From: a virus
Lineage: Duplodnaviria > Heunggongvirae > Uroviricota > Caudoviricetes
Reading direction: 5' to 3' (one strand)
DNA: 49,713 bases
IMG/VR virus record: IMGVR_UViG_2529292882_000007
Shown: positions 1 to 49,713 of the stretch, piece after piece
How the letters are laid out: the number at the start of each line of letters is the position of its first letter
Position numbering within the stretch: position 1 is the first letter of the stretch
Notes under the pieces: model-generated
Told to the model about the DNA's origin: nothing
The model's database searches: none
The model's input: the letters and a program-made list of their open reading frames with translations, nothing else
Program-made: the position numbers and the translations under genes

Positions 1-95
1 CCAGCCGCTACAGCACCAGTTTGTAATCCTGACCTTACAAGTTGACTCTTTGCCTCACCAAGATGCTCTCGCTTCAATTCACGCTGCCTTTCCAA
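1..95. repeat. Terminal direct repeat; identical to 49619..49713, consistent with overlapping ends of a circular molecule
   Basis: Positions 1..95 and 49619..49713 read as the same 95 nt. Confidence 0.9.
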
Positions 96-755
96 CGCGC
101 GGTTTAACTCCTCCTGAGCACGTTTTACTGCAAGAACATTTTTCCGTGCTTCAGCCAACGCATTTTTATAGCTGTTAATTTTATCAATACGTTGTTTTTC
201 TAATGCCCGGTTAAGTTCCTCCTGCTGTTTTTTCACTTGCTGAACATTTGCTCTGGCTAAAGCCAAAGCCGTTCTGTAGCGGTTAACCTGCTCAACGCTA
301 CGGACCTGAGCCTCACGATTACGATCAATGCTGGCTTTAAGCTCTTTCTCTCTTGAAGCCAAAGCTCTGGCAGATGTATCAGCTCCCTGATAGGCAGACT
401 TTAAAGCGGCCAGTTCTTCACGCTGAGAACGTAGTGATGCTCGTAAATTCGATGAATGTGTTTTTGCCTTCTCAAAGTCACGAAGCATCGCTCTGGTTGG
501 ATTGGCCGTGTTTTTTATTTGCTTCTGTAACTCTTCAACGCGAGCGGCAGCTTTATGATATTCGAGGGCAGTCTGTCCAACCTTTACTTTTACAGATTGT
601 AGCTTTTGAATTTCCCCATGTTCTTTCGTTAATCCAGCAAGCTCGGCATTTAATTTAGCAACAGCCTGATTAGCTGTAGTAAAACTTTTGGGGAGAGAGG
701 CGGCAACTTTGCCGCCAATTTCAAAAGCCAGCTTAAAGTTCTTATTGCTGGCCAT
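1..755 (-). CDS. Tail tape measure protein, N-terminal part (continues across the window junction into 47581..49713)
   Basis: ATG at 755 with GAGGA Shine-Dalgarno; reading frame continuous with the minus ORF at the window end; coiled-coil ELNRALE-type internal repeats; position between chaperone and baseplate genes. Confidence 0.7.
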   Translation of the reverse strand, partial: MASNKNFKLAFEIGGKVAASLPKSFTTANQAVAKLNAELAGLTKEHGEIQKLQSVKVKVGQTALEYHKAAARVEELQKQIKNTANPTRAMLRDFEKAKTHSSNLRASLRSQREELAALKSAYQGADTSARALASREKELKASIDRNREAQVRSVEQVNRYRTALALARANVQQVKKQQEELNRALEKQRIDKINSYKNALAEARKNVLAVKRAQEELNRALERQRELKREHLGEAKSQLVRSGLQTGAVAA

Positions 756-760
756 TAGTA

Positions 761-925
761 TTAATCCTCATTAAACACATCAATCCATGCGACGATTCGC
801 CTCAACCGAAGCGAAAGCCAGTAGGATATAGGTGTTGATTGAGATGATTGAGATAGAGAACTCGCGGCCCTCATTATTTGCTTATCAATAGGTTTTTGCT
901 CATCAAAACCTACGAGAGCAAAAAA
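761..925 (-). CDS. Tail assembly chaperone -1 frameshift extension (E-prime/GT-like)
   Basis: ORF 761..943 overlaps the 3' end of the chaperone ORF in the -1 frame; slippery heptamer T TTT TTG at 919..925. Confidence 0.5.
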   Translation of the reverse strand, partial: FFALVGFDEQKPIDKQIMRAASSLSQSSQSTPISYWLSLRLRRIVAWIDVFNED

Positions 926-1191
926 TTCTGTACCTTTTGACAAACTTTAACAAAGTCTTTCGCTGGCAATCCATTCAGATACTCTATTGGACGGCCAATA
1001 CAGCGAGCAGCCAAGGCTGCATGGACTTTATTATCAAGTGATGTTTGAACTGAAACATGCCCTTGAGATTGCAGTAAGTCCGATACCTCTAAAATATCAC
1101 TGCCTTTTAAGTTGTCTAAATCAAGGTTGAGTTCAGTCACCGGCTCAAAGTCTTCAAAACGATATTCTTTACTTAATTTAACGGTTTCCAT
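910..1191 (-). CDS. Tail assembly chaperone (P2 E / lambda G-like position)
   Basis: 93-aa ORF between tail tube and tape measure genes; ends in slippery site. Confidence 0.55.
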   Translation of the reverse strand: METVKLSKEYRFEDFEPVTELNLDLDNLKGSDILEVSDLLQSQGHVSVQTSLDNKVHAALAARCIGRPIEYLNGLPAKDFVKVCQKVQNFLLS

Positions 1192-1200
1192 TTTGTCACC

Positions 1201-1722
1201 TTATAAACCTAAATCATCACGAACGCTTTTTAATATATCTTCACCATCAAAGATACAAATAAAGTTCAACTTATCAATTTCCAAGACTTCTTTTCCATCA
1301 ATAAATAATTTGATATAGAGAACTTCAAATTCATTCTCTGAATCAGTAGCCTTTGCCACCTGTAGCGAACCTAAATCCAGTTTTTTAGGGTTTAGCTTCA
1401 TTGAAGCCCGAATAGGAACCGTTTTATATTTTCCTGTTCCTGCATCATAAACCTGCTGGCTACCGCGAAAATCTACCTGATGCGATGAGGATAGAAATAA
1501 TTTTGTACCAGCAGAGGTCAGAGTTCGCCATTTAAGAGAGACAGTCATTGGTTTGAAATGCCCCAGCGTTCCGCTCTCAAGCTCTCCAGCGATACCTGCA
1601 CCACTAACAGTTTCTGTCATCATCTCAATTGATGGCAGCTTTGCGTCAGCAACACCGATAATACGGTTTCCCTCACCGTATACTGTAAAGTTAATAAGTC
1701 TCTCAGGAATTTGATTGCTCAA
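1201..1722 (-). CDS. Tail tube protein (contractile tail)
   Basis: 173-aa ORF immediately downstream of sheath gene. Confidence 0.65.
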   Translation of the reverse strand: MSNQIPERLINFTVYGEGNRIIGVADAKLPSIEMMTETVSGAGIAGELESGTLGHFKPMTVSLKWRTLTSAGTKLFLSSSHQVDFRGSQQVYDAGTGKYKTVPIRASMKLNPKKLDLGSLQVAKATDSENEFEVLYIKLFIDGKEVLEIDKLNFICIFDGEDILKSVRDDLGL

Positions 1723-1738
1723 AGCAACCTCCTATTAT

Positions 1739-3202
1739 TTATTCAGAAAACAAGTTCAGCAGATAATCAGGATTATATTCCATGACGAACTCTATATCTC
1801 TGGCAGGTGAGAATGGTGTCATTTTTACATGGAATTTAACAATCCCGTCCATCAATGACGTAATCGTGTTTTCAGACTGATCAAAGGTAACAACACCACC
1901 TGCAATATCCTGATTACCTGTGAGGCCGTTAAGCCAAATATTCGCACTTGTAACAATCGATTCAATTAATCGACGGTTTGCAGGATTGTCTATTTTTGAC
2001 CAATGCGAAAGAATTAACGTATTACCCACCCAGTTAAACATACGTCGGCAAACACGAAATGCGTCTTTGGGGTCTGTAGATGTTGGATAAATAGCATTAC
2101 GGTTTCCCCATGATTTCCAACCATCAAAATTAAGGCTTGTTACAATCCCCTGACCATTTAAGTAGTTTGCCTGGCTAATGTTAAGCCATACTTCACTGCC
2201 ATCTTTACGTACAGCACCGTCCATCTGTAGTTTTATATTTGACGGAGAACGTGATGGAATATCACCATACTGACTATCCAGCAAGCATGTTGCGGCCGCT
2301 AAATGGGTTGAGTGATGGTAAATATTGTCACCAAGTTTCACCATCGGCCAGCACACTGTCTGGTTAGCGGCCATGTGATTATTGTTCTGTTTCCATTCAG
2401 GAACAGCCGAGTAATCACTGATAGTAGATTTATCGGTCGGTGCATCAGTTATGGCTTCTGCTTTGAACAATTCACTAATCAACGCGGCTTTAGTCGCCAT
2501 TAGCTGACCAACTTCACTATCAGAACTAAATCCAGGCGCAATCACTTGTCCAGGAACCAACTTGAAGCGGGGATACACATCAGACAGTAACTCAAGCCCT
2601 GTATTGGCTTTAGTGTTGGAATCCACACCACCGATAATGTCATTTTTAGTTACGGCACCGGGATCAAGATGCGTATAACTAACCTTAAGAGTAGCGTCTT
2701 TTTCGGTAATTTTTCCTCCGCTAATAGCGGTAATGACCGTATAGCCATTATCATCCAGCGCCAGCACATAATCGGTATCAACCGTTAACCCTGGCGAATC
2801 ACCATCTGCTTTTTTCACAACAACAGATTTATATAAGACACCATCGTTAGAGAGCGTACCTTTCCCGCCAGAAAGTTTTACTACCTCATCAGTTACGTCT
2901 TTCTTATGCTTTGCTGGATCAAGCACATTGATAAATACAACTGGCGCAACACCATATATTCCAAATGCGACTTTAATTACTTCGCTTAAAGTATATTTCT
3001 CGAAGTTTGTGCTATATCCTATTTTAGATACGGCCTCTGCGTATGTATAAGCAATGATAGGTTTATTTACTGCTGAGGCTGGATCTTCTAACTGATTAAC
3101 AGGAGCTGTACCAAATGCGACAATCAACCCAGCACTAACTTGTACTGGAGGAGTTATAGATGTAGCCAGCTCAGATATATAAATACCGTGGCGATATCCC
3201 AT
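1739..3202 (-). CDS. Tail sheath protein
   Basis: 487-aa ORF; C-terminal WGNR-containing region typical of myovirus sheath proteins; followed by tube gene. Confidence 0.8.
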   Translation of the reverse strand: MGYRHGIYISELATSITPPVQVSAGLIVAFGTAPVNQLEDPASAVNKPIIAYTYAEAVSKIGYSTNFEKYTLSEVIKVAFGIYGVAPVVFINVLDPAKHKKDVTDEVVKLSGGKGTLSNDGVLYKSVVVKKADGDSPGLTVDTDYVLALDDNGYTVITAISGGKITEKDATLKVSYTHLDPGAVTKNDIIGGVDSNTKANTGLELLSDVYPRFKLVPGQVIAPGFSSDSEVGQLMATKAALISELFKAEAITDAPTDKSTISDYSAVPEWKQNNNHMAANQTVCWPMVKLGDNIYHHSTHLAAATCLLDSQYGDIPSRSPSNIKLQMDGAVRKDGSEVWLNISQANYLNGQGIVTSLNFDGWKSWGNRNAIYPTSTDPKDAFRVCRRMFNWVGNTLILSHWSKIDNPANRRLIESIVTSANIWLNGLTGNQDIAGGVVTFDQSENTITSLMDGIVKFHVKMTPFSPARDIEFVMEYNPDYLLNLFSE

Positions 3203-3492
3203 TATTTAATCTCCATGATAGAAGAAGAAACTCTAGAGTACATTACATACTCGACACTGGTTTTATCAGAAAGTCTTTTTTCTGCATCTGCAAAATCACT
3301 GGTTGCCACAAACAAACACTTTGCACCAGGAATATGTGATATTAATTTTTCACACTCTGGAGATAAGCCATTCTTAAATAGTTTATGCTTCAAAATTGAG
3401 AGTTGAGGGATTGTTGGTCCTATATATACAAATGTTTGAGCAACATCTTCCTTCTTTTCTATATCTTCTTTACTACTTTTCTTATTAGCCAT
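3202..3492 (-). CDS. Hypothetical neck/tail protein
   Basis: 96-aa ORF between head and tail modules. Confidence 0.3.
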   Translation of the reverse strand: MANKKSSKEDIEKKEDVAQTFVYIGPTIPQLSILKHKLFKNGLSPECEKLISHIPGAKCLFVATSDFADAEKRLSDKTSVEYVMYSRVSSSIMEIK

Positions 3493-3978
3493 TTAGATAA
3501 ACTCCTGAGACTGAATATTCTGAGGCTTTAATACTAGCCACGTTCCAGTTGCTTCCGTTATCCAATATGGATATGGTTGATCATCAAACATTCGCCATCT
3601 GATATCACCCTGAAAGAGAAATTTCTCTTCAAGTAAAGGCTTCTCCTGAAAATGAAACATCATCCTTTCAAGAAGAGCCATTACCCATTCATATCCAGTA
3701 TGGTCCTCACAAAAACCACCTAGAAGAAACTTAACCTTAACTTCATCCATTTCAGGCTGCATTCCTCCTTCCGTGGGTCTGATAATCACATGAGGAAATT
3801 CTGGCGGTTTATCTGGAGATGGTTGTGATTTAGGAGGCAAGTACCCTTTAAATATTGTTGGAACAAACAATTTAATATCGCTGTCTGTTTCATCATAAGG
3901 AGGCCCCTGCACTAATAAATCATGGAAAACCTCATGTTCCAACCGATTTTTTATTGCATCTATCAAAAGATTAATCAA
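3493..3978 (-). CDS. Hypothetical tail completion/neck protein
   Basis: 161-aa ORF; start overlaps stop of upstream gene. Confidence 0.3.
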   Translation of the reverse strand: MINLLIDAIKNRLEHEVFHDLLVQGPPYDETDSDIKLFVPTIFKGYLPPKSQPSPDKPPEFPHVIIRPTEGGMQPEMDEVKVKFLLGGFCEDHTGYEWVMALLERMMFHFQEKPLLEEKFLFQGDIRWRMFDDQPYPYWITEATGTWLVLKPQNIQSQEFI

Positions 3979-4319
3979 ATCGGCATTCCTCTGTTAGTAT
4001 TAACAGTGAGAGTTATTTCTAATACACCAACATTATCTGATACTTCATCAACAATATAATTTTTACCGTTGATTTTCATTGACTGGTCTTTGACAGGGAG
4101 AACAGGAAAATCTTTTCTTGAAACAAATAATATTATTTGCCCCTGATTTATTCCCTCTGCAAACTCAGCATATGAGCGTTTATTACGCTCATGAATAAGG
4201 TCTGTATCAATAACGGCAAGGATATCCTTGCCGTCTATGTTATATGTATCGGCAAACTCTTTTTCATTGAGGAATATTGCAGAAATATCTTGCGCTATAA
4301 CCTCTTTGAAGGAGTTCAT
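3975..4319 (-). CDS. Putative head-tail connector (FII-like position)
   Basis: 114-aa ORF, start overlaps stop of upstream gene; position after capsid gene. Confidence 0.35.
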   Translation of the reverse strand: MNSFKEVIAQDISAIFLNEKEFADTYNIDGKDILAVIDTDLIHERNKRSYAEFAEGINQGQIILFVSRKDFPVLPVKDQSMKINGKNYIVDEVSDNVGVLEITLTVNTNRGMPI

Positions 4320-4711
4320 TACTTCTTATTACCTTTTTTTTGCGTTGATTTTTTCGCATTACTGGTATCAGAAGTAGCTACAGATTCAGATGAATCATCA
4401 GCAACCATTTCCTCATTGCCGCTATCATCCTCAAACTCAACCTCGAATACACAGCTACCCGCCTCCGTTCGCGTAATCAACCCCGTGTCCACAGCATCAT
4501 TAACAGCAGATGCGTATCCATGCTCAAAAGCTAACTTAGCAGCATCATAGCCCCCAGCCGATGCCAAATCACCATCCTCTTCGGTGGCAATAGCATGTCC
4601 TGACGCAATCAGTTCGGCAATTCTGGAGTTATCCATTAGCCCATTAAGCAAACGGCCCGCTTTTAGCGAGCCGTGGCTTATCGTATCAATGTTTTTAATC
4701 AGTCTGGCCAT
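4319..4711 (-). CDS. Putative head completion/DNA packaging protein (FI-like position), acidic C-terminal half
   Basis: 130-aa ORF directly after major capsid gene; acidic stretch EVEFEDDSGNEEMVADDSSE. Confidence 0.3.
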   Translation of the reverse strand: MARLIKNIDTISHGSLKAGRLLNGLMDNSRIAELIASGHAIATEEDGDLASAGGYDAAKLAFEHGYASAVNDAVDTGLITRTEAGSCVFEVEFEDDSGNEEMVADDSSESVATSDTSNAKKSTQKKGNKK

Positions 4712-5755
4712 TTAAACCACCTTAGCCACCAGATAGGCATCAGCCACACCAGGATTAGGCAGTGGAGATGACTTCATGGCAACATAACGGCCAGCCGGCT
4801 TACGAGTTACCCAGGTGTCTGGAACTCGTGGCGACTCAACAATCGTCAGAGTCTTTTCGGCGTCATCTACAAGCTCTACAGCACCATACAGCATCGTTCC
4901 TCGACCAGGAGAGCCAAAGAGGATCTTATCTTCCGGTACTAATGGTTCTGGTTTTCCTGTTTTATCATTGCGAATAAGTTCGTCGTAACCATAAAAATCG
5001 ACACCTTCAAGATTGCCATAATGAGTTACGCCTTCTTCTAACTCCTTAGGCTCAATATACCCAAGCTCTTTTCGGCGATTATCAAGATATTTAGTTACTG
5101 CTTCATTTTTAACGAAGGCATCAACAACTTTTGCGCCCATTACGGCAACACGAGGTGTAAAACCTGAAGTTAGTGATACCCGACGTTTCCAGTTGCGAAC
5201 ATTGACCAACGGATCTGATTTTGCTGCGCTCCATAAATCATCACCTGTCAGTTCAAGATATGGTTTATCTCCTTCCTCTTCAGGCCAAAAATAAACTGTG
5301 TCATCCACTCCTTCACCAACAATATCAACCTGCCCCGTAAACAAGACTTGTGCACACATCCATTCTTCACGGCGGTTAACCATTTCATCAAGCTCAAGCA
5401 AATCTTTACCTAATTGCGCGGCGGCTCGTTCTGCTGGCGATTTTGCGTTGTAAATATTCTCACCCGGAAGCCTGTTTAAAAGCAGCTCGGCTGTTGTTAC
5501 CAAATCAGGTGCAACAAGTGGTGGCTCCAGAGTTCTCGTTACAAAGCCGCGTCGCTCAACGGTTTTTGAGCCAAAACCTTTACCAACAAACGGAGCCATA
5601 GTACGGCCACCGCGAACAAAATCCAGATCAACTTTCTTTGTATTAAAGGTCTGAACACCAGGAAAAAAGGTACGAAGAAGAAAACGACGAGCCTTGAAAT
5701 TCTGAATAACAGGCTCAAGCATTGTACGTCGTTCAAAAATATCAATATTCGGCAT
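4712..5755 (-). CDS. Major capsid protein (lambda gpE-like)
   Basis: 347-aa ORF after decoration gene; resemblance to lambda E family by memory. Confidence 0.7.
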   Translation of the reverse strand: MPNIDIFERRTMLEPVIQNFKARRFLLRTFFPGVQTFNTKKVDLDFVRGGRTMAPFVGKGFGSKTVERRGFVTRTLEPPLVAPDLVTTAELLLNRLPGENIYNAKSPAERAAAQLGKDLLELDEMVNRREEWMCAQVLFTGQVDIVGEGVDDTVYFWPEEEGDKPYLELTGDDLWSAAKSDPLVNVRNWKRRVSLTSGFTPRVAVMGAKVVDAFVKNEAVTKYLDNRRKELGYIEPKELEEGVTHYGNLEGVDFYGYDELIRNDKTGKPEPLVPEDKILFGSPGRGTMLYGAVELVDDAEKTLTIVESPRVPDTWVTRKPAGRYVAMKSSPLPNPGVADAYLVAKVV

Positions 5756-5775
5756 AAAAATACGACCTCTTTATA

Positions 5776-6159
5776 TTATGCAGATGGATTTTGTTGTGCG
5801 GTATTAAGGAATATCCCAACCTTCCGGCAAGCCAGATATACATCGGCAATCTTTGCTGATTCAGGAAGGATAACCGCATGTGCATTGAACATTCCGGTCA
5901 GCCATGCTGTTCCAACTTGCGCTGAATCAGTCGCATCAATACTATGTTGAGCGATACAATACGGTTCTTTTGCCACCCCCTCACCAGAGAGATTTATTGG
6001 TGCCACAGTGACAACATTTGTTGTCTGATCAATACTGACAAAAGCAAGCAACTCACCTCGATTTACTTTACCGCTGGCAAGTTTAATACTTGTTGTAATT
6101 GCTGGCATACCACCAGAAATAATCAGATTATCTGGTTCAAATGAAAAAGACTCTCGCAT
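5776..6159 (-). CDS. Head decoration protein (lambda gpD-like)
   Basis: 127-aa ORF between protease and capsid genes. Confidence 0.55.
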   Translation of the reverse strand: MRESFSFEPDNLIISGGMPAITTSIKLASGKVNRGELLAFVSIDQTTNVVTVAPINLSGEGVAKEPYCIAQHSIDATDSAQVGTAWLTGMFNAHAVILPESAKIADVYLACRKVGIFLNTAQQNPSA

Positions 6160-6168
6160 AAACTCACC

Positions 6169-7257
6169 TTAATTTTTATCGCGGTTTTTGAATACTGACC
6201 CAATAACATTTTTTACTACTTCAGCTTGTTTATCGCCGTTGTTTTCTGGTTGATTAACATCAACTGAATCATTCACCTCATTTGCGTCTTCTTGCCGTTG
6301 ATTAAGAAAGTTTTTGTTACGCGCTCGCTCTGCATTCATAATTTCCAAAGCAAGTTCAGCCGCAGAAATTCCCGTTTTGAATTTTGCATTCTTAACCAGG
6401 TCGTCATGACCTGGAATTACGCTATTCTCGATTGTTTCAATGCGCTCGCGTTCTGATTTAACGCCCTCGTCTTTACCAGCATTAAAAACCTGATTGTATA
6501 ATTCTGGATGTTTATTTTTTAATTCATCAAGAGTCACAACATCGTCCTCATTTTGTTCATTTAATTCAGTAGATAATTCATTTTTATTTTGTGGCAACTT
6601 TGCGAGCGAATCAGGTAATTTTGAAAACCTTGATGCTTCAAAAGTTATTCCATTGAGCGAAAGCATCCCTTCCTTTATAGAAGCGGATAAGCGCATTGGT
6701 TTTTCAACTTCGTCAGCAAATCCAAGCTCTACAGCCTCTTCTGCATTTAGCCATGTTTCCTGATCCATTAGTTCAATTAATTTATCCTCAGAAAGCCCTG
6801 TTTTCTCCTTATATGCAGATAAAATACTATCTCGTATCTTATCCATCATCTCAGCAATATCACGTAGTTCATCCGCATCACCAGCAGCAAATGTCCACGG
6901 ATTATGGATCATCATCATAGCATTAGATGGGATAACAACTTTATCACCTGCCATTGCAATAATGGTTGCAGCCGATGCAGCAATACCATCAATATAAACA
7001 GTAATATTAGCCTTATGACGTTTTAATGAAGAAAGAATAGCTTGAGCAGTAAAAACAGAACCACCATAACTATTAATTTTTACGTTGATAGCATTTGATG
7101 ATATATCCTTTAATTTATTAACTATGTCAGAAGAAGAAACCTCATCAAATTCGCCAATATATCCGTAGATTAAAAGTTCAGCCGGAGAGTCATCTTCACC
7201 CGTGCTATTTTTTATTTCCCACCAATTAGGCATCATCTGTCTCCATATTTTGTTCAT
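6169..7257 (-). CDS. Prohead protease with C-terminal scaffold region (ClpP/S49 family, lambda gpC-like)
   Basis: Motif YGGSVFTAQAI...GIAASAATIIAMAGDKVVIP typical of ClpP/S49 serine protease core; acidic/coiled C-terminal half. Confidence 0.7.
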   Translation of the reverse strand: MNKIWRQMMPNWWEIKNSTGEDDSPAELLIYGYIGEFDEVSSSDIVNKLKDISSNAINVKINSYGGSVFTAQAILSSLKRHKANITVYIDGIAASAATIIAMAGDKVVIPSNAMMMIHNPWTFAAGDADELRDIAEMMDKIRDSILSAYKEKTGLSEDKLIELMDQETWLNAEEAVELGFADEVEKPMRLSASIKEGMLSLNGITFEASRFSKLPDSLAKLPQNKNELSTELNEQNEDDVVTLDELKNKHPELYNQVFNAGKDEGVKSERERIETIENSVIPGHDDLVKNAKFKTGISAAELALEIMNAERARNKNFLNQRQEDANEVNDSVDVNQPENNGDKQAEVVKNVIGSVFKNRDKN

Positions 7258-8800: not shown

Positions 8801-9036
8801 AAATCTCTTATCACCACTCGTTTAATTCGTGGGCCTCGGCGTATACCTGCTGATAATCTTTCTACTTCATTACGCCAGTAATCCATCTCTTTTCTGACTT
8901 CTGATAAATCCGCACGAGTTAACTGCCGCGTACCAAATTTATATGACTGACCGCCAATAGCAATAGCGCGATATGCTTCCCGCCAGACAGATAACATCTC
9001 TCTGGCTTCAGTCAGAGAAAATGCTTCATTGTTCAT
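8797..9036 (-). CDS. Head-tail joining protein gpW-like
   Basis: 79-aa ORF between large terminase and portal, conserved lambda gene order. Confidence 0.45.
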   Translation of the reverse strand: MNNEAFSLTEAREMLSVWREAYRAIAIGGQSYKFGTRQLTRADLSEVRKEMDYWRNEVERLSAGIRRGPRIKRVVIRDL

Positions 9037-9047
9037 TTATATTTCCT

Positions 9048-13328: not shown

Positions 13329-13344
13329 CAGCGCCTCCTACACA

Positions 13345-39179: not shown

Positions 39180-39205
39180 TTCGCAAAAACCTCGGTTTAC
39201 GAGAA
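39180..39205. repeat. gix/hix-like crossover site (proximal)
   Basis: TTCGCAAAAACCTCGGTTTACGAGAA; inverted relative to 41876..41901, shared core AAACCGAGGT. Confidence 0.7.
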
Positions 39206-39901: not shown

Positions 39902-39903
39902 TT

Positions 39904-40437: not shown

Positions 40438-40465
40438 GAGAAGGCCCGCTATCGGGCCTTAATTT

Positions 40466-40993
40466 TTACTCTGGTTTTTGTGGCCATTCTGGCTTTGCCG
40501 TATCCACGCGGCTGACCAGAACGCTGTAGCGTTCCCATGACTCCAGTCGTGTACGCTCCTCATCTGTTGCCATATTCAATCTGACAGCGCGTTCCAGTGG
40601 CTGGATAACTGATTCAGCTTCGGAAAGTAACGCGGACTTTTGTGATTCAGCCTGTTGTTGCTGTTCGTCTTCCGTATAAATCCGTTTAACCACAGCTCCA
40701 TCCTTAAACATCCACTTCCCTGAATCATCGGCACGACGATTAGCTGTTATATCGGGAACCTCAACGACGCTAAAACCTTCAGGATTAAGCGTGGAGGCAT
40801 CTTTAGTGATGGCGACAATAATATTATTTTCGTCGTAAACAATCTTTATTGTGTCTTCCTGAAAATTATTTACTTCCTCATACCAGTTTTTATCATCTTC
40901 GGACCATAACCATATAACATCAAAATTCTTTGTTAGCTGATATTGTTCTTTTGTTTTTGGATTTCCTGATCTGATATTTTTTAAATGCTGCAT
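40466..40993 (-). CDS. Tail fibre assembly chaperone (active orientation)
   Basis: 175 aa immediately downstream of tail fibre gene. Confidence 0.75.
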
Positions 40994-40996
40994 AAT

Positions 40997-43249
40997 TTAT
41001 ACCTGTGCGACGTTATACCATGTGCCATTGATGTATTTCTGAATTGGTCTGAAAATAGCTTCATCATCGCCATCAACTTCACCAATAATTCTTAATCCGG
41101 TAAGTGCGTGTCCGGCAATCTCATAACGCCCGCCGCGTGACATTAATTGAACAACTCGCGTACCAAGCCGGACATCTCCCACATAGCGAGAGTCAAAATT
41201 GCTGTAATTGGATGGGATAACCTGTCCGTGCACATTCAGACCGTGCCCCATAGTAACAAGACCAGTATTAAGCGCGATATAGAATGGACGAAGACCATTC
41301 CAGCTACCGTACTGGTCACCACTGGCAGTAAATAACAGATACAAGCTGCCACCATCCTGTCGCAGAATTGCACCATAATTTCCTGCAATCATCCTTAAAG
41401 CATTCTGTGATGTAGTTATCAGTTCCCCAGTCATGGTATCGCCAGCACGATTCCAGTCGCGACGCCAGCCAGGCGCGTAGGTGTCACCATGATTAATATA
41501 AGTAAATTGCGCTTTTGCTGTACCGTTCGTTGCAGTTGTTGGAGTAGTGACGCGAATAGTCATTGCGCTCTTGGTGCCCATCACTTCAACCACCGAGCCA
41601 GCAAGTTGAATATTCCCGCAACCTGTATCTGTAATAATTTTATTATTGGCGTAAGACCATGAACCTTTGCACATCCAGTATGGGTGATTAAATGCCCCCT
41701 GAGACTCCAGCCACGCAATAAACTGTGCTGTCGTCCAGTTGCTGCTATCTCCTCCAATATTGATACTTCCGCTGGCCGCTTTCGCTGCACCAATATTTTT
41801 TGTGAAAGTATCTTTCCCTGGAATATCCGCACCGTTCTGGTTTTTCTGCAATGCACCAGAAGCCTTGTTTATCGTTTCCTGCAAACCGAGGTATCCGATA
41901 ACGGCAGCAACGGTCGATTTCGCAAGAATATCCCGCCCGACTTTTGTCAGGGTTGCCAGGCTGGCGACATCATTCCCCGTAAAATACGGAAACTTGTCTG
42001 CCGCAGTAGCAAGCCCGGCCAGCGCCGTCAGGGTGGCATCTTTCGGTTGCTTACCCGCAAGCGCGTTAGTCATGGTGGTCGCAAAATTCGGGTCGTTTCC
42101 CAGCGCCGCCGCTAACTCGTTCAGCGTATTCAGTGCGTCAGGCGACGAGTCCACGAGGGCAGCGATCGCAGCCATAACATAAGCCGTGCTTGCGATCTGA
42201 GTATTGTTAGTACCTTTTGGCGCAGTTGGTGTTGTTGGTGTTCCGGTCAGCGCCGGACTGTTCAGGGGCGCTTTCTTGTTCGTTTCATCCATTACCACCT
42301 TTACAGCTTTCGATGTCGCGGCCAGTGTTTCAGACGTGCTGTTGGTGGCACTACTGAGCTGAGTTATTCCCCTTACAGTCAGTGAAGCTACAGGCACATT
42401 TGTTATCTGCGCCCACGAATGCGTGTGATTGGACGGAGCCTTTCCGGCCGCAAGATCATACGCTGCCTTAACAGCCTTTGGTGTTGCTGCCAGCGTTTCA
42501 GACGTGCTGTTGGTGGCACTACTGAGCTGAACAATCCCTTTTCGCGCTGTGGTAGCGTCCTGTGCGGTGTATTTAGCGTTAGCCAGGTCATATGCTGCCT
42601 TAACAGCCTTAGGCGTCGCAGCAAGCGTTTCAGACGTGCTATTGGTGGCGCTGCTAAGTTGAACAAAGCCTTTTGAGGTTAAAGTTGCATCAGGATGATT
42701 ACGTGATTGCTCATGTTTCACAATGGCTTGCTTAAGCCGCTTTGCTGAAACAGCAAGGGAATCATCTGTACCTGCATCAATTTCTTGTTCATTAGCAAAT
42801 CTTGCCACCCCAACAACAGTTTCGGTCGCGGGAGGATTAATAAACTCAATATCACCAAATGTAATATTTTTAGTATCAAGAGTTTTAATTGCTATATCAC
42901 TTGATATTAAAGCGATAGTAGATGATGCTTTATTTATTATTGCTTGTTCTTGTGAGTATACAGCAAACAACGTACCCTTATTCGTATACAATCCTATTGT
43001 ATGGACAACATACTCATCTTTACTATCATCCTTCGCTGTCACATGAATTGTATCAGGGGAAACAACTTTGCCACCTATTGTGGTAAGTCGTTTTATTTCG
43101 TTTGTTATATTTGTTTGTGAAGTTGACGTGACATAATATCTACTACCTAAACCAACAGAAACAATCTCAACTTTATTTGTTCCTGTTTTGTTGGCATTAA
43201 CCAGCTCCTGACGCCCGGCGTCAGTCATCGTAAATAATAATTTACTCAC
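40997..43249 (-). CDS. Tail fibre protein
   Basis: 750 aa; three tandem QLSSATNSTSETLAATPKAVKAAYDLA repeats; crossover site inside gene at 41876..41901. Confidence 0.8.
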   Translation of the reverse strand: MSKLLFTMTDAGRQELVNANKTGTNKVEIVSVGLGSRYYVTSTSQTNITNEIKRLTTIGGKVVSPDTIHVTAKDDSKDEYVVHTIGLYTNKGTLFAVYSQEQAIINKASSTIALISSDIAIKTLDTKNITFGDIEFINPPATETVVGVARFANEQEIDAGTDDSLAVSAKRLKQAIVKHEQSRNHPDATLTSKGFVQLSSATNSTSETLAATPKAVKAAYDLANAKYTAQDATTARKGIVQLSSATNSTSETLAATPKAVKAAYDLAAGKAPSNHTHSWAQITNVPVASLTVRGITQLSSATNSTSETLAATSKAVKVVMDETNKKAPLNSPALTGTPTTPTAPKGTNNTQIASTAYVMAAIAALVDSSPDALNTLNELAAALGNDPNFATTMTNALAGKQPKDATLTALAGLATAADKFPYFTGNDVASLATLTKVGRDILAKSTVAAVIGYLGLQETINKASGALQKNQNGADIPGKDTFTKNIGAAKAASGSINIGGDSSNWTTAQFIAWLESQGAFNHPYWMCKGSWSYANNKIITDTGCGNIQLAGSVVEVMGTKSAMTIRVTTPTTATNGTAKAQFTYINHGDTYAPGWRRDWNRAGDTMTGELITTSQNALRMIAGNYGAILRQDGGSLYLLFTASGDQYGSWNGLRPFYIALNTGLVTMGHGLNVHGQVIPSNYSNFDSRYVGDVRLGTRVVQLMSRGGRYEIAGHALTGLRIIGEVDGDDEAIFRPIQKYINGTWYNVAQV
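41876..41901. repeat. gix/hix-like crossover site (distal, inside tail fibre gene)
   Basis: TTCCTGCAAACCGAGGTATCCGATAA encoding fibre residues ...GYLGLQE... Confidence 0.7.
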
Positions 43250-43279: not shown

Positions 43280-43861
43280 TTAGCACTCGCCAATTAATCG
43301 TACATAAGACACAGGCTGACAAGCACCAACAATACCGACACCACCAGAAACATTGGCTGCTTGCGAAAATGTAAATAATGTTCTTGCCGACTTTGCGCTC
43401 TTGATACTTCTTAACGTATCTTCCAACATCTCTTTCGAAGGAACGGCACCATCAAAAGAGTTAATCGAAGCAACAATTGAGGCTGTATATGGTTCGCCAG
43501 GTGGTGATGTTTCAAACCATTCTGTTATGTTTACCTCTCCACCCAAGCTATTTACTACATCTTCAACCGCTGCCCTTGTACCCTTTATTCGCTTTGTTCG
43601 TATTATTGATTTAAAAACAGAACGCTTTAACGATACAGGCCAACTATCCCTCCATGTATCAGCATTCCATTGCCAAGCTAAATGATCGAGAACAACTGAG
43701 TCCAGGTTATCAACAACGCTATATATTTCTGTCTTATATATTAAATTGTTAATTGCTTGTAGTTCATCATCGATAGCTTTCGACATAGCTATCACGTTGG
43801 GATCTCTAGCTAAGTTAGGAGGTAAAACATCCAACAAGCTAACATTAAAGATATCAGCCAT
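43280..43861 (-). CDS. Baseplate/tail protein I-like
   Basis: 193-aa ORF between baseplate J-like and tail fibre genes. Confidence 0.5.
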   Translation of the reverse strand: MADIFNVSLLDVLPPNLARDPNVIAMSKAIDDELQAINNLIYKTEIYSVVDNLDSVVLDHLAWQWNADTWRDSWPVSLKRSVFKSIIRTKRIKGTRAAVEDVVNSLGGEVNITEWFETSPPGEPYTASIVASINSFDGAVPSKEMLEDTLRSIKSAKSARTLFTFSQAANVSGGVGIVGACQPVSYVRLIGEC

Positions 43862-44978
43862 CCTCTAACCCCGCATACTGGCAATTTATATTTCTCTCTC
43901 TGGCGACCTGCGTCTCTCCAACCACAGTAAATACAGGACTTGATATTTCTAATCTTTTAGCCCCAGCATTTTTTAAACGTTGAATAATTTCATCTGGATT
44001 TATATCTCTTCCCATAACCGAACGTTGCCATTGTTTATACTCATCAATAGCTTTCTCAACCTCACTTTGAATTAAAGTTGTTCTGTTTTTGTCCGATGAG
44101 TTAATCCAGTATTTAATTATTATATCGTATTCAATGCTCTCTGGTTTCTTAACAAGAACTTTATCTGTGAATGGTCGAATATTAGTTGCAGAGAGAACGC
44201 TATTTATCTGCTCTAATAATTCATCAGAAGGTATATCTCCGTTCTCTAACAAAGAACGGATTTCTACAGTTCCGGGCGATGGTGTATATACATTCACATC
44301 TTTTATATTCTGATTGGCTGTTCTTGTCCAATATTTATAAGAATCCTCCGGCCCTGCTGTAGATAGTTTTTCCGGCGAAAGCTTTATTCTTTCAGCATAA
44401 TTATCATCTGACTCTGTATCAGCACCAGAATTAGATGTTGTTAGATTCCTTACGCTGGAAACATACGGCAACGGAGTCACCAACTCATTTATTTGCCCTG
44501 GTAAAAAGCCATTCCCCGATAAACCAGGTATAACAGCATATCCTGAGACTGTACCAACTGTTTTCCCAGCTGGTATTTCCAACAAAACATCTGTTTGGAA
44601 AATAACACTATTTCCAGTTGAAATTTGAGTGCCAGCAGGTATTGTATATATCCCCGATAATTTTGTTGACAGATTAAACTCAAATGTAGTCAAGGCAGAT
44701 TGAGCTTCCAGCCTAGGCGTATCCGTCAGATAGCCTATATGGTCGAGATATTCACCTTCACCATATGTAAGAAGGTTTTGTTTTGCAGAAAAATCGATAG
44801 CTTTTCTTTGCTGTATAATAATCTCACACAATGACAAGATGAATAATCTACGTGGATCAGCAGGTGCTAATGTTTCACCTGTTATACTCTCAAAAGCCCT
44901 GATTGAACGAGTTGTTATATCAGTCGGGTTAGAATCTGCGAAAGTAATATCTGGCAAACCACCGCGCGGCAACGTCAT
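43854..44978 (-). CDS. Baseplate J-like protein
   Basis: 374-aa ORF in conserved baseplate order. Confidence 0.55.
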   Translation of the reverse strand: MTLPRGGLPDITFADSNPTDITTRSIRAFESITGETLAPADPRRLFILSLCEIIIQQRKAIDFSAKQNLLTYGEGEYLDHIGYLTDTPRLEAQSALTTFEFNLSTKLSGIYTIPAGTQISTGNSVIFQTDVLLEIPAGKTVGTVSGYAVIPGLSGNGFLPGQINELVTPLPYVSSVRNLTTSNSGADTESDDNYAERIKLSPEKLSTAGPEDSYKYWTRTANQNIKDVNVYTPSPGTVEIRSLLENGDIPSDELLEQINSVLSATNIRPFTDKVLVKKPESIEYDIIIKYWINSSDKNRTTLIQSEVEKAIDEYKQWQRSVMGRDINPDEIIQRLKNAGAKRLEISSPVFTVVGETQVARERNINCQYAGLEDG

Positions 44979-45295
44979 TCTCTAACTCCTATCACAAGTT
45001 TTGGCCTAATAAAACCATCAGAAACGTCCGTTCTTTCAAAAGTAACAGAATGGATAATCGCTCTAGGCTCAAACTCACTAATTTTTTGAATTATTTCTCG
45101 TGTTGCTGTAGCAATAAAAATTGGGCTGGGGCTATCAACAAGACTTGAATTAACTCCTAATTTTCTGGCATATGGTACAGTGCCAATCTGAGTATTAATA
45201 ATAGTAGAGACATTTTGCAAAACTTCTTCTACAACTGTTTTGGGCGACCAATCAATCGAGTAAGAAGGTGATGATATGGTAAACGTATTATTCAT
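44975..45295 (-). CDS. Baseplate wedge protein (gp25/GPW-like)
   Basis: 106-aa ORF upstream of J-like gene. Confidence 0.5.
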   Translation of the reverse strand: MNNTFTISSPSYSIDWSPKTVVEEVLQNVSTIINTQIGTVPYARKLGVNSSLVDSPSPIFIATATREIIQKISEFEPRAIIHSVTFERTDVSDGFIRPKLVIGVRE

Positions 45296-45759
45296 AATAA
45301 TTTACCTAACGCACTTCTAGTTTTTGACTCTATATTGCCAGCAATATCAACTAATGCTTCTTTCAGAGAGGTCTGTCCGACTTCCTGTAATTTAATGCCG
45401 ACGATAATCACTCGTGGATTCCCAGTTGGACCGAAATAAGTCCATGATTCCTCTATATCTGTAATTATAAAATTACCAAAATACTGAATACCAATTACAA
45501 CAGGATTTACTTCCTGAATTGATTGCATTGTCCTAAGTAATGAAAGCGCAGCCAATGGAACAATGCCAAGTGTTGTATCCAACCGCATATTAAAACTAAC
45601 TTCATCCAGATCTGGACCTATATCCTCCAGAACAGGTTTAAGCCCAATAACATCATGGCGCGCTACACGACGCTTTGACGTCCTTTTAAAATTGTTGAAC
45701 GTATTCACCACTATTGATGAGGCAACAAAAGGCATTGTACCAAGCATACCCACAATCAT
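45292..45759 (-). CDS. Putative baseplate protein
   Basis: 155-aa ORF in baseplate cluster. Confidence 0.35.
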   Translation of the reverse strand: MIVGMLGTMPFVASSIVVNTFNNFKRTSKRRVARHDVIGLKPVLEDIGPDLDEVSFNMRLDTTLGIVPLAALSLLRTMQSIQEVNPVVIGIQYFGNFIITDIEESWTYFGPTGNPRVIIVGIKLQEVGQTSLKEALVDIAGNIESKTRSALGKLL

Positions 45760-46376
45760 GCCTGAGCCTCCGTTGTCGGAGCGTATTCCCCCTGAGCTGT
45801 GTGATGGTGGCCTTTAGATTTAATACCATCAACATCTATATCACCACCAACAACCTTAACATCCCCAGAAATTGTAGCTGCAACACCTCCAGCAGAAGAT
45901 CCTTTCATTCCACCTTTGAAGGTTAGTAATCCTTCAACTGTAGCATTTCCGGTAATGATGGTTTCTGGAGCATCAATAGTTACGGTTCCTGTAGCCTTAA
46001 CGGTTACATCTCCGACAGCATCAACAAGGAGTAAATTAGATTCTCTGTCTACCTCAATACGAGTTCCGTTATTAAATCTAATGACGCGTTTATTAACAGT
46101 ATTAGATGGCGGCTTCTGTGTTTCATCATAAAAACTACCAAGAATAAAACCTTGTTGCGGCCCTGCGGGATGAAAGATACACAAAACTTGCTCACCAATA
46201 TCTGGCATCCAGTAATCAGCATTCTTATCCGTATTTTTCACAATAACTGATAACTTTGCCGAAGTGACGTTATCCTGATCATCGAAAGTAACTCTTGCTG
46301 TAACATCACCATCATCAATATCAGAAACAACGCCAACTCTTATAGTCTGACGTAATAATGTTTCTAAATCATTCAT
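45756..46376 (-). CDS. Baseplate hub/spike protein (gpV-like)
   Basis: 206 aa; N-terminal GVVSDIDDGD...VLCIFHPAG resembles gpV. Confidence 0.55.
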   Translation of the reverse strand: MNDLETLLRQTIRVGVVSDIDDGDVTARVTFDDQDNVTSAKLSVIVKNTDKNADYWMPDIGEQVLCIFHPAGPQQGFILGSFYDETQKPPSNTVNKRVIRFNNGTRIEVDRESNLLLVDAVGDVTVKATGTVTIDAPETIITGNATVEGLLTFKGGMKGSSAGGVAATISGDVKVVGGDIDVDGIKSKGHHHTAQGEYAPTTEAQA

Positions 46377-46378
46377 AA

Positions 46379-47380
46379 TTAATACCCATTAATTACTCTT
46401 CGGACATCAATCGAGGTGGTATAACCACTAGCCCCAATTGAATGCACAGCTTTCGATATAAGATATTTTCCAGAAAATGAACCGAATCCGTCCAGATTTA
46501 TAGTTACACCAGCTACCAATCTAGTGTCTCCAACCAATACTAAAGATCCTGTATTTTGATATCTATTTTTAAGCCGCAAAGCAGCCTTTGCCTTACGTTT
46601 TGCTTCATCTAAATTAGCTACCAGTTTTCTTATCTTAAGATTCGACCCTTCTTCTACGGATGGATCTACCCAAGTATACGAAAGCGACTTTCTTTTTTTA
46701 GGTACGCGATATTTGCACGTGCAACTTTTATACAAATCTGTAGATTGTGTGCTAAAGCTATATCTGATTATCTCATCAATACCTAACGTAAGCGTAGCGA
46801 TAGGATCTTTTTGCTCAAACATCTCTTGAGCAAATATTATTAATTGGCTATCAGTGACCTTTAACGACACCCCTTCATCCTGGCAAAGTCGATGGAGAAA
46901 TTTTAAATCGCTTTCCTCCATTTGATCTTCACGCGCATAATATGGATTACTATCACCATCAATAAGAAACAACAGTTCAAGGTTAGCTAATTTAGCTATA
47001 GAGGTTGCTATATCTTTAAGAGTTGTTTTTTCCCATGCATTACTTTTTAAATCACGTCTAATGCCTGATGAAACAGGAACAGAAACAGCAGTCACCTCAA
47101 CAACAGAAGGTGGTCCAGAGCAAGTTATGCCATCTACCTGGAATTTCCCGCACTCAAGGACGATTTGATTTATAGGCTTAAAGCTCAAATCAATAAAATC
47201 ACCCTTTTTAGGTGTCCAGTCTCCAGACCATTTCCCATCATCATTTTTTAATATAATAGAAATATCATCGACCTGACCATCTTCATTATCTGTATAAGAC
47301 ATTGACAAAACATCAGGTGACATATGAGCGGTAACATTTACATTCTGATATATAACATCAAAAAGCGTTTTACGTAACAC
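46379..47380 (-). CDS. Tail protein (P2 gpD / Mu gpP-like)
   Basis: 333-aa ORF downstream of tape measure and LysM protein. Confidence 0.5.
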   Translation of the reverse strand: MLRKTLFDVIYQNVNVTAHMSPDVLSMSYTDNEDGQVDDISIILKNDDGKWSGDWTPKKGDFIDLSFKPINQIVLECGKFQVDGITCSGPPSVVEVTAVSVPVSSGIRRDLKSNAWEKTTLKDIATSIAKLANLELLFLIDGDSNPYYAREDQMEESDLKFLHRLCQDEGVSLKVTDSQLIIFAQEMFEQKDPIATLTLGIDEIIRYSFSTQSTDLYKSCTCKYRVPKKRKSLSYTWVDPSVEEGSNLKIRKLVANLDEAKRKAKAALRLKNRYQNTGSLVLVGDTRLVAGVTINLDGFGSFSGKYLISKAVHSIGASGYTTSIDVRRVINGY

Positions 47381-47588
47381 TATTGCGTCTCCACGGAGGC
47401 AAATTGTTTACTGATATTGGCATAACCGGAGCATCAGGAACTTTAAGAATAATTCCCGCAGAAAAAAGCACCGTAAAGCGGTGCTCAGTATTAGCATCAA
47501 TAAGAAGATAAGACAGGTACTCATTACCATACAACTTTAACGCGATACTATCCCATGAGTCCCCTTGAACCGTTCTATAATCATCCAA
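47370..47588 (-). CDS. LysM-domain tail protein (P2 gpX-like)
   Basis: 72 aa; LysM-like VQGDSWDSIALKLYG. Confidence 0.5.
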   Translation of the reverse strand: MDDYRTVQGDSWDSIALKLYGNEYLSYLLIDANTEHRFTVLFSAGIILKVPDAPVMPISVNNLPPWRRNSVT

Positions 47589-49713
47589 AACTTAATCTCC
47601 GTTGTTGGAACATATGAGCACTCAATTTCTTCTCAAAATCAGAATATCCCGCATCTAATGCTCTTTTAGCTGCCGCCTCAGTTTCCTTTGGTGAACCAGC
47701 CGGAAGATTGATTACAGGTGAATAGGTTATTCCACCAGTCACAGCATTAACGTTCTGGCGAGGTCCAGAAGTCCCGGCGGCAGATATCCCGTGAGGTGAT
47801 AAATTTGATTGCCCGAACTTGGTTGCTATTGCATTCTGTAAGCTGTTATTCCTGCTAACGCCTGATGCCAGAGTAGTCATTATTGCACCACCTGACTTTG
47901 TTAGCTGTGAGAATGGACCTTTTTTCGCGTCAGAGAACGGTAAATACTCACGTACAGAAGAAAAAACGCCTTTCACTTCATTAATTAAAGCATTTGCTTT
48001 TGATTTTATCCCAGTGATTAACGTCTCAATTATTTTTGCGCCTGACTCACTCCAGTTTATTCCAGACAAATAAGCCGTTACAGATTGGAATGCTCTTATA
48101 AAGAGTCCAACTGGTGAAAAACGCATAAAAACAGATACCAGTGTATCTATGATTTTCTTTCCTGTTTCGCTCCAGTTAATACCAGAAAGGTAATTTGTTG
48201 TAAGTTTAAATGCTTTAATTAAGAACGGAAGCGGAGACATCCATTTAAAAGCACTAATTAATGTACTGTAAATTCTTACTCCTGCCGAACTCCAGTTTAT
48301 GTTGGAAAGATAATCCCATGCTTTACCAAACATAGATATAATCCATCCATTGAGATCAAAGTTTAAGATAAAGTTTTTTATAGCTTCAAACGATTTAACT
48401 GTATATTCCTTAACAGAAGGCCAAACTCTGACAGCATAATCTCTGATCTTATCCCAGTTCTGATAGAGCAATATTCCTGCGGCAACCAGCGCAGATATAG
48501 CCATCTGAATCCACCCGAAGGGTGTTAGCTTTGTCGCTACAGATAAAGCCAGCATAGCTACCCTACACGCTATAACCACACTTTTCATGGTTAGAAACGC
48601 ACCTGCCGCCATCACAATCTGAGACACAAAATTGGGGTTGTTAGCTACAAATTCACTAATTTTTGTAATCAGCGGAACCAAAACACTAAGCGCGGCATTC
48701 AAAGCAGGTTGCAAGGCCTGACCAAAACTTAATGATGCATTGCTAGCCTGAATACGTAATTGTTTCAATCGCTCCGCATTGTCTTTCGTTATGTTGGCAA
48801 AATCGCGGTCAATAACAGCACTTCCAGCACCAAGAGATGTTGCTTTGATTCTCTGGTATTCCTTCCAGTTTTGAATCATCGGACGAACAAAGTTCTGAAC
48901 CTGCATATCGCCAAATAGCTCACCAAGTAACTTCTGATCTCCGTTCTTAGTCATTTTCATGACAGAATGCATTGCAGCTTCGAATGGATTCTTCCCTTTT
49001 TTCTGCGCTGTTGTGACAATTTTATATAAATCTACACCGAAATTTTTCTTTGCTTTTTTTAGTGTTTCAGGGGAAAGTATTTTCGCCAAAAAGTTGTTCA
49101 TATTATTAGCAGCCTCATCCGAAGTTGCAGCACCTTTGCGAGCTATCTGCAAAGCTGCCCCCATCGTCGCGGCGGCTTCTTTACCTCCCATTTTTAATGC
49201 CTGGAACTGGGCACCAAGCACAGGAAGATTTTTGGCCATATCTTTAAATTCAAAATTTCCCTCTTTCCCTGCCTGAACCAGAATCCCCATTGCAGACTTC
49301 ATTTGAGATGGATCAATCTTCAATGAGTCACTTAATGTAAATGATGCTTTCGAGACATCGAGGATATCAGAGCCAGTAGCTGTAGCTGTTCGCCCAATAG
49401 TTAGTAGATTCGCCTGAGCCTCTTTATAATCCTGCCCAGCAGCGACGAGAAAACCCTGAGCAGCCTGAATATCAGATGCAAACTGGTTGGTAGCCGTTCC
49501 GGTAACAAGCATCGCCTGCCCCATCGCCTGAACTTCTTCCGGCTTCATATCTGCCGTAAGACCAATCATTTTGTTTTCACGATTGAAATTTGCTGCATTG
49601 TTAGCAGCAGCAAATGCACCAGCCGCTACAGCACCAGTTTGTAATCCTGACCTTACAAGTTGACTCTTTGCCTCACCAAGATGCTCTCGCTTCAATTCAC
49701 GCTGCCTTTCCAA
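47581..49713 (-). CDS. Tail tape measure protein, C-terminal part (N-terminal part at 1..755)
   Basis: 710-aa ORF running off the window end in frame with 1..755; repeated hydrophobic W-containing motifs. Confidence 0.75.
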   Translation of the reverse strand: MERQRELKREHLGEAKSQLVRSGLQTGAVAAGAFAAANNAANFNRENKMIGLTADMKPEEVQAMGQAMLVTGTATNQFASDIQAAQGFLVAAGQDYKEAQANLLTIGRTATATGSDILDVSKASFTLSDSLKIDPSQMKSAMGILVQAGKEGNFEFKDMAKNLPVLGAQFQALKMGGKEAAATMGAALQIARKGAATSDEAANNMNNFLAKILSPETLKKAKKNFGVDLYKIVTTAQKKGKNPFEAAMHSVMKMTKNGDQKLLGELFGDMQVQNFVRPMIQNWKEYQRIKATSLGAGSAVIDRDFANITKDNAERLKQLRIQASNASLSFGQALQPALNAALSVLVPLITKISEFVANNPNFVSQIVMAAGAFLTMKSVVIACRVAMLALSVATKLTPFGWIQMAISALVAAGILLYQNWDKIRDYAVRVWPSVKEYTVKSFEAIKNFILNFDLNGWIISMFGKAWDYLSNINWSSAGVRIYSTLISAFKWMSPLPFLIKAFKLTTNYLSGINWSETGKKIIDTLVSVFMRFSPVGLFIRAFQSVTAYLSGINWSESGAKIIETLITGIKSKANALINEVKGVFSSVREYLPFSDAKKGPFSQLTKSGGAIMTTLASGVSRNNSLQNAIATKFGQSNLSPHGISAAGTSGPRQNVNAVTGGITYSPVINLPAGSPKETEAAAKRALDAGYSDFEKKLSAHMFQQRRLSFG

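Follow-up and report, generated by a model that had tools for sequence, protein, structure and literature searches.

Temperate phages kept as plasmids are known as phage-plasmids (Pfeifer et al. 2021, PMC7969092), and tyPPing handles ten types of them, AB_1, cp32, N15, P1_1, P1_2, pCAV, pKpn, pMT1, pSLy3 and SSU5_pHCM2 (PMC12977533). Within this list, SSU5_pHCM2, pKpn, pSLy3 and pMT1 belong to the SSU5 supergroup of ~100-kb siphovirus-type elements (PMC7969092, PMC12977533). Here we analyze IMG/VR virus record IMGVR_UViG_2529292882_000007, a stretch of 49,713 nt from a member of the Caudoviricetes that is referred to in full as the window, and which an initial annotation had read as a closed circular element without integrase and with a phage-plasmid lifestyle. 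We put the probability at roughly 0.9 that the window represents in full the genome (49,618 bp) of a temperate myovirus, which persists as prophage in the form of a free circular plasmid of low copy number and belongs to the family that includes the Escherichia coli ATCC 25922 plasmid and the Yersinia vB_YpM phages, with a 95-nt repeat at its ends that is an assembler overlap. None of the ten tyPPing types fits this element. It is an ordinary one, a new and slightly mosaic member of an abundant phage-plasmid family that has already been sequenced.

The longest exact match between the two ends of the window is a 95-nt direct repeat (1–95 and 49619–49713), which leaves a unique circle of 49,618 bp, the length given by the initial annotation. 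Closing the circle joins two minus-strand pieces, an N-terminal part with its start codon at 755 (1–755) and a C-terminal part that runs to a stop at 47581 (47581–49713), into one open reading frame (ORF) of 930 amino acids (aa). This ORF has a Pfam PhageMin_Tail domain (PF10145) and is exactly as long as the genes annotated as tape measures in relatives, and the left repeat copy lies within it. When 1200 bp with the join at their centre are compared with two circular E. coli plasmids and Yersinia phage vB_YpM_41, the alignments are collinear, contain no gaps and show 98.8–99.4% identity; a chromosomal prophage in CP117606.1 likewise aligns over the join without interruption. The join is real sequence, and the earlier claim of a tape-measure frame continuous across it holds.

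The repeat lies within a gene, and relatives have one copy of it. It represents an assembler overlap of a circular or circularised molecule and not a physical genome end. The same two facts speak against the idea that the circle is an assembly artefact, in the form of a chimera or of a linear phage genome bearing short direct repeats at its termini. In favour of that idea, the window taken alone has no more to show than the exact end overlap. However, many circular records of 46–50 kb, each assembled independently, are collinear with the window over its whole length, and its large terminase is of the lambda gpA type, whose members are cos enzymes and do not make short direct terminal repeats. 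We regard an artefact as hardly credible.

Megablast matched the window to Yersinia phages vB_YpM_39, vB_YpM_41 and vB_YpM_44 (OR545053-55; ~49 kb, 97–99% identity), whose records are declared circular and give Y. pestis EV76-CN as host. At the same identity it matched many circular plasmids of 46–50 kb from E. coli, E. fergusonii and E. albertii, and the ATCC 25922 plasmid (NZ_CP009073.1; 48,488 bp) is among the close relatives. Three close records cover ~91% of the window at ~97.7% identity. Gene order, RepA, ParA, HigBA, CI, antirepressor, invertase, late genes and size class are shared with the ATCC 25922 plasmid and the vB_YpM phages, whereas mosaic swaps set the window apart from them in the Ead/Ea22 region (~20.6–23.1 kb), around the antirepressor (30.6–32.2 kb) and at the fibre ends. 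The G+C content of the window is 44.4%; that of E. coli chromosomes is well above this, at ~51%.

Relatives in complete E. coli genomes were found outside the chromosome throughout. The repA region occurs in 71 of 5,426 such genomes, at 82 places, none of them chromosomal, and the head module occurs in 72, all on records of 31–94 kb. The single head-module place filed as a chromosome was discounted, being a 31-kb linear record (NZ_CP035831.1) labelled "extrachromosomal". The initial annotation had pointed to chromosomal junctions in host assemblies as the place to look for integration, and with repA and the head module as markers none was seen in the 5,426 genomes. Identical proteins were also looked up in draft and metagenome assemblies, as blocks of a public assembly index sorted by longest contig size. 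The exact RepA occurs in 788 blocks (255 at 20–50 kb, two at 0.2–1 Mb and none above 1 Mb), the exact capsid protein in 983 (699 at 20–50 kb, none above 200 kb) and the exact tail-tube protein in 10,547 (7,333 at 20–50 kb).

The window yielded 87 non-overlapping ORFs. Those of at least ~100 aa were scanned against Pfam together with two long alternative-frame ORFs, and large unmatched ones were scanned against PHROGs. These homology searches returned no Phage_integrase domain, no large serine Recombinase domain and no rve or other DDE transposase, and no protelomerase domain was present in any scanned ORF. The absence of a tyrosine or large serine integrase, which the initial annotation had noted among the ORFs, is thus backed by homology search. 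The sole recombinase among the scanned ORFs is a 184-aa small serine protein with Resolvase and HTH_7 domains (38561–39115, minus strand), an invertase of the Gin/Cin/Hin type that adjoins the fibre region. Given its association with gix-like crossover sites and an alternative fibre end, described below, this recombinase is explained as a host-range invertase and not as an integrase. Lack of an integrase, presence of plasmid genes and the consistently extrachromosomal state of relatives in complete E. coli genomes together support the proposed phage-plasmid lifestyle.

First among the plasmid genes is an IncFII-family repA (37397–38389, minus strand; longest ORF 330 aa). Its product matches Pfam IncFII_repA (PF02387) with E = 5.5e-44 and NCBIfam RepA_IncFII_LM (NF040977) with 233 bits against a cutoff of 70, which bears out the RepA named in the initial annotation, whereas the narrower incFII_RepA equivalog model gives 82 bits, far under its cutoff of 447. 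The repA domain begins at residue 57 of the longest ORF, in-frame ATG codons lie at 38245 and 38233, and gene callers in public assemblies often choose a 278-aa form. The true start is probably one of these two codons, and the forms of 326–330 aa are probably over-extended. RefSeq starts of repA in relatives (326 aa) would run over the hairpin structure described next and are probably too far upstream.

An oriR-like region (37150–37396, minus strand) follows repA. It contains the DnaA box TTATCCACA at 37247–37255, 142 nt past the repA stop and beside an AT-rich stretch; the box is the sole consensus copy in the window, shuffling the whole window 100 times gave at least one consensus copy in 34 cases, and the origin is assigned by sequence alone. 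A DnaA box and AT-rich stretch downstream of repA is the arrangement of R1-type origins. Opposite the repA leader, the antisense strand (38258–38378, plus strand) is predicted to form a pair of stem-loops (−63.6 kcal/mol, z = −8.9), with a U run after the second, and this predicted RNA fits a copy-control countertranscript. For the ATCC 25922 relative, PLSDB gives no replicon type in its MOB-suite record.

The partition region encodes a short Walker-type ParA of 222 aa (28887–29555, plus strand) with a CbiA/ParA domain at residues 10–211 and, as in type Ib partition, without an N-terminal DNA-binding domain. Upstream (28766–28886), AT-rich repeats with an 8-bp period form two clusters that are a centromere or operator candidate, and a third cluster lies just downstream of parA (29555–29594). 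A candidate centromere-binding protein of 82 aa comes next (29599–29847, plus strand), proposed from its position and predicted fold. In its AlphaFold model, residues 1–40 form a disordered basic tail and helices span residues 47–59 and 62–81 with pLDDT above 90, so that a ribbon-helix-helix "ParG" is plausible. From the ParA/ParG pair of the initial annotation, ParA is therefore retained, with its CbiA/ParA domain, and ParG becomes a label for a protein of suitable position and compatible fold that has no sequence match to that family.

Two elements may penalise loss of the plasmid. A HigB2-type toxin of the Gp49 family (35587–35940; E = 5.7e-23) lies upstream of an antitoxin with HTH_3/HTH_37 domains (35288–35587), both on the minus strand and abutting, with one base common to the start codon of one gene and the stop codon of its neighbour, in agreement with the HigBA pair reported earlier. 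A ryfA-family RNA (30070–30368, minus strand) gives a full-length Rfam match of 134.6 bits against a cutoff of 80 and includes a 40-codon hydrophobic ORF (MKKYYMCIFIVVTGALFTPHGEGW...); it may act in plasmid addiction as a TimP-like type I toxin. A motif scan located a dif/cer-like XerC-XerD site, GGTGCCGATAA-CGTCCA-TTATGTTAAAT (36010–36037, minus strand), in the interval that separates the toxin-antitoxin pair from repA. The site has a perfect XerD arm, was the one match found where 0.17 were expected, and is identical in two relatives, and we regard it as a candidate dimer-resolution site in an element without Cre or resolvase.

Control of lysogeny appears to centre on a divergent region of 173 bp (27455–27627) in which three palindromes of the type ACCAC-N5-GTGGT, read by eye, are candidate operators. 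A CI-like repressor gene with an HTH_3 domain and a weak S24-like C-terminal domain (27628–28284, plus strand) faces a leftward early operon across this region. The operon (20638–27454, minus strand) encodes Ead/Ea22-like, DUF4014, DUF3560 and DUF1064 proteins, a Ref-type RecA-dependent nuclease and proteins of unknown function according to Pfam and PHROGs. On manual reading, the G-D-S-M nucleophile motif of the repressor is D-E-L-M, with Leu in place of the catalytic Ser, which hints at induction by an antirepressor over induction by self-cleavage.

A candidate for such an antirepressor is a 383-aa protein with ORF6N and Rha domains, the start of whose gene is overlapped by a 75-aa ORF (31727–33102 in all, plus strand). 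Directly upstream are an IsrK-like RNA (31526–31599; 65.7 bits) and a C4 antisense-like RNA (31625–31713; 70.8 bits), both on the plus strand and above their Rfam gathering scores. The immI region of P1 has the layout c4-icd-ant. By analogy, the order of RNAs, 75-aa ORF and ORF6N-Rha gene suggests induction via an RNA-gated antirepressor.

Several observations weigh against this reading of the window as a plasmid prophage. The physical state of the element in this particular sample is deduced from that of its relatives. Taken by itself, the 95-nt repeat would arise equally from annealed or circularised cos ends, or from concatemers in virion DNA. The 82-aa ORF had no match in Pfam (including ParG), NCBIfam or PDB sequences, showed no detectable similarity to a ParG sequence, and its model returned an empty Foldseek result. 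Rfam gave no CopA match in the repA leader, only sub-threshold ones at chance level, and no promoter for the countertranscript passed a consensus scan. The S24-like domain of the repressor scores under the Pfam cutoff and, together with the D-E-L-M motif, makes RecA-driven self-cleavage doubtful. Finally, parts of the family lie on large contigs in a few assemblies, including a 310-kb draft contig (JAAMFU010000031.1, L018) that contains the stretch from the tape measure to CI.

These large contigs bear on the proposal that the window shows the excised, circular form of a prophage that normally integrates, released through XerCD at the dif-like site or by an unrecognised integrase. The site itself, the repA side of the family on the 310-kb contig and on a 214-kb draft contig, and the late module in the 4.69-Mb chromosome CP117606.1 all speak for it. 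However, the CP117606.1 prophage shares late genes only, from window position 13431 through the join to 41883 (~21 kb, 95–97% identity). The shared part comprises a 239-aa gene, a ParB/Srx gene, terminase, head, tail, baseplate and the constant part of the fibre, and homology ends at the gix site (41883). Upstream genes of this prophage are lambdoid (YbcO and a Q-type antiterminator), and within the 31 kb read there was no homology to the repA, par or toxin-antitoxin regions of the window. The shared module indicates that integrated lambdoid prophages and this plasmid family trade late genes with one another.

On the 214-kb contig (CAKKDS010000005.1), as on a 56-kb metagenome contig (k141_17339), P2-type tail genes are joined to the repA side via shared fibre and assembly-gene sequence. 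Such joins could be repeat-driven misjoins or homologous recombinants, and the 214-kb case fits these and not site-specific integration. CP050217.1 holds a 3.8-kb CI fragment only, amid plasmid debris. Site-specific integration of the whole element was shown by none of CP117606.1, the 214-kb, 56-kb and 310-kb contigs and CP050217.1. A full replication and partition set would moreover be superfluous in an integrating phage, and the complete E. coli chromosomes surveyed have neither repA nor the head module. An excised circle is thus very unlikely.

The reading of the window as a temperate phage kept as a free plasmid also requires a working phage. Late genes fill about half of the circle, and the virion, packaging and lysis set is complete: terminase for packaging; portal, protease and capsid for the head; sheath, tube, tape measure, baseplate and fibre for the tail; and holins and endolysin for lysis. 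In relatives, including the ones deposited as phages, the ORFs for capsid, portal and large terminase and those for tape measure, sheath, tube and baseplate have lengths identical to those in the window, and a few other ORFs differ from relatives merely through the choice of start codon. A single pointer suggests that virions are produced, namely that near-identical genomes were deposited as Yersinia phages vB_YpM_39, vB_YpM_41 and vB_YpM_44.

The element could instead be a cryptic, defective plasmid prophage, a phage-descended plasmid that no longer makes infectious particles. Damage in some relatives lends this idea substance: the antirepressor gene is split in NZ_CP062206.1, IS1203 interrupts the terminase gene in NZ_CP173475.1, and Tn5403/Tn3-type, IS21, IS26 and IS91-type insertions occur elsewhere. 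The relatives that bear insertions are NZ_CP173475.1, NZ_CP098182.1, NZ_CP032259.1, NZ_JBRERL010000006.1 and contigs L016, L026 and L033. In the window, by contrast, the antirepressor gene is whole, the ORFs checked match relatives exactly or closely in length, and no insertion sequence or transposase was found among the ORFs. We consider a defective state improbable, if somewhat less so than an excised circle. Contig L033 also has a SMODS and S_4TM gene pair beside the lysis genes; insertions and added genes in relatives indicate that the backbone picks up cargo.

The following late genes, all on the minus strand, were assigned by profile scans unless stated otherwise. A P2-type contractile tail block (761–3202) encodes the tail assembly chaperone (910–1191), tail tube (1201–1722) and tail sheath (1739–3202), the last named from the annotation of relatives. 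The head module (3202–10904) includes connector genes and a gpD-like decoration protein alongside major capsid protein E (4712–5755), a ClpP-type prohead protease (6169–7257), a lambda-family portal (7226–8800) and a lambda gpA-type large terminase with ATPase and nuclease domains (9048–10904). The small terminase subunit (phrog_57) follows at 10910–11470. The baseplate and the hub are encoded by P2-type genes (I, J, W, U, V, D) at 43280–47588, and the P2-type tail proteins in all are tube, sheath, chaperone, tape measure, gpD, V, U, W-like, J and I. The lysis cassette (19043–20310; PHROGs and Pfam) pairs a GH108 endolysin with two holins.

Upstream of the packaging operon is an AT-rich intergenic region (12052–12608), a putative cos region, and the records of the three Yersinia phages begin inside it, at ~12453–12465. 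Three genes for ParB/Srx-N-domain proteins, one with a methyltransferase domain, sit either side of this presumed cos region and, with the 239-aa protein gene, span 11461–15341 (minus strand; Pfam, PHROGs, PADLOC). Two of them match the PADLOC type II methyltransferase model, in its N-terminal part only. These proteins are ParB-nuclease- or methyltransferase-like phage proteins unrelated to the ParA partition system.

Further genes include an MT-A70 family DNA methyltransferase (17503–18090, minus strand; Pfam) and a tRNA with anticodon CAT (18399–18474, minus strand; ARAGORN), which ARAGORN and the phage record give as Met and the RefSeq annotation of plasmid relatives as Ile. Beside the antirepressor gene lies a gene for a 211-aa protein (33137–33772, minus strand) assigned to phrog_23465, of unknown function. 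It had no Pfam or NCBIfam match, and PADLOC found no defence system in it or its neighbours. The gene is missing from the three closest records compared; an identical protein occurs in 201 assembly blocks, and all eight of the places listed are the same slot beside the antirepressor gene.

Next to the invertase gene is a probable invertible tail-fibre segment of 2.7 kb (39180–41901) bounded by inverted 26-bp sites. The left crossover site, TTCGCAAAAACC-TC-GGTTTACGAGAA, is at 39180–39205, and the right one, TTCCTGCAAACC-GA-GGTATCCGATAA, is at 41876–41901, within the fibre gene and inverted relative to the left. We take both to resemble the gix and cix sites of Mu and P1, on comparison with a gix consensus. 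The present fusion is a 750-aa tail fibre gene (40997–43249, minus strand). From the left site, a frame of 234 codons (Sv'; 39197–39901, plus strand) is open to a stop at 39901 and lacks a start codon at the site itself; to judge from this structure, it is the alternative fibre end awaiting fusion. Each fibre end has its own assembly gene directly after it (39904–40437, plus strand, and 40466–40993, minus strand). In the ATCC 25922 plasmid, the inner part of the segment (39497–41051) is reversed relative to its flanks, consistent with natural inversion, although fibre mosaicism blurs the exact end points.

We propose that these parts would work together as follows. RepA would fire the origin just downstream of its own gene, at the DnaA box and AT-rich stretch, and would be throttled by the countertranscript opposite its leader. 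ParA and the 82-aa ribbon-helix-helix-like protein would segregate copies via the repeats around parA, host XerCD would resolve dimers at the dif-like site, and HigB2/HigA with the ryfA-type toxin RNA would penalise plasmid loss. The CI-like repressor would silence the phage until the antirepressor, under C4 and IsrK RNA control as in P1 immI, switched it on. DNA cleavage would take place at a cos site that lies upstream of the terminase genes, and the invertase would alternate the two fibre ends and so change host range.

The window adds little by itself, as a further copy of an element for which many plasmid records and three phage records already exist. Its family occurs in ~1.3% of complete E. 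coli genomes, reference strain ATCC 25922 included, and seems to be without a formal description and type. As it falls outside the ten tyPPing types, surveys that rely on tyPPing would leave it untyped. We found no paper that names this family or describes Yersinia phages vB_YpM_39, vB_YpM_41 and vB_YpM_44, and CP009073, CP020497, CP009861, CP023368 and CP062206 were not found in the published supplements searched. Three names were considered and set aside: pSLy3 denotes an SSU5-type group, pTZ20_1P is P1-like, and Yersinia phage HQ103 ("pseudolysogenic, plasmid-like") is a 32-kb P2-type phage with an integrase. In the papers searched, vB_EcoM-613R2 is mentioned only as a prophage fragment with "ParB without ParA".

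We tentatively raise a broader possibility, which we think has the odds against it: that the family is a very common and formally undescribed type of Escherichia phage-plasmid deserving a class of its own. Such a type would combine a late module swapped with integrated lambdoid prophages, an IncFII-type and possibly antisense-controlled replicon, type Ib partition, a site for resolution by host Xer and a P1-like, RNA-controlled antirepressor, and may sometimes recombine into chromosomal prophages via shared fibre and late modules.

Among individual plasmid modules, the replicon resembles the IncFII replicons of R1 and R100 in its IncFII-family RepA, the DnaA box and AT stretch just downstream and the structured antisense candidate over the leader. 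It differs from them in its score against the incFII_RepA equivalog and in having no Rfam CopA match. The partition locus resembles type Ib ParF/ParG of TP228, with a short Walker ParA, then a small protein in which two C-terminal helices come after a disordered basic tail, and with short 8-bp-period repeats around the operon, whereas the 82-aa protein has no detectable ParG sequence or fold match.

Comparison with whole phage-plasmids places the element apart from the SSU5, N15 and P1 types. SSU5 supergroup members are unlike it, since it has a contractile tail and a genome of 49.6 kb, and no SSU5-group records are among the top matches listed. N15 is a linear plasmid with hairpin ends and a protelomerase, in contrast to this element and its circular relatives. 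P1, too, lives as a plasmid and has no integrase, and it shares with this element a contractile tail, a nuclease of the Ref type and an invertible fibre segment with a Cin-type invertase. In immI of P1, as here, a small ORF and an antirepressor-like gene come after a C4 antisense RNA. However, P1 is 94 kb, and P1-type elements (P1_1 and P1_2, related to P1 or D6) are ~90 kb, against 49.6 kb here, only ~2% of the first half of the window aligns to it, and the alignments are short patches (the pmgT region and the fibre segment). P1 has an iteron-type RepA and this element one of the IncFII family, together with a lambda-type head and packaging module and a short ParA without a P1-type ParB. P1 also carries Cre/lox, whereas this element has no tyrosine recombinase and the host Xer site is the candidate resolver.

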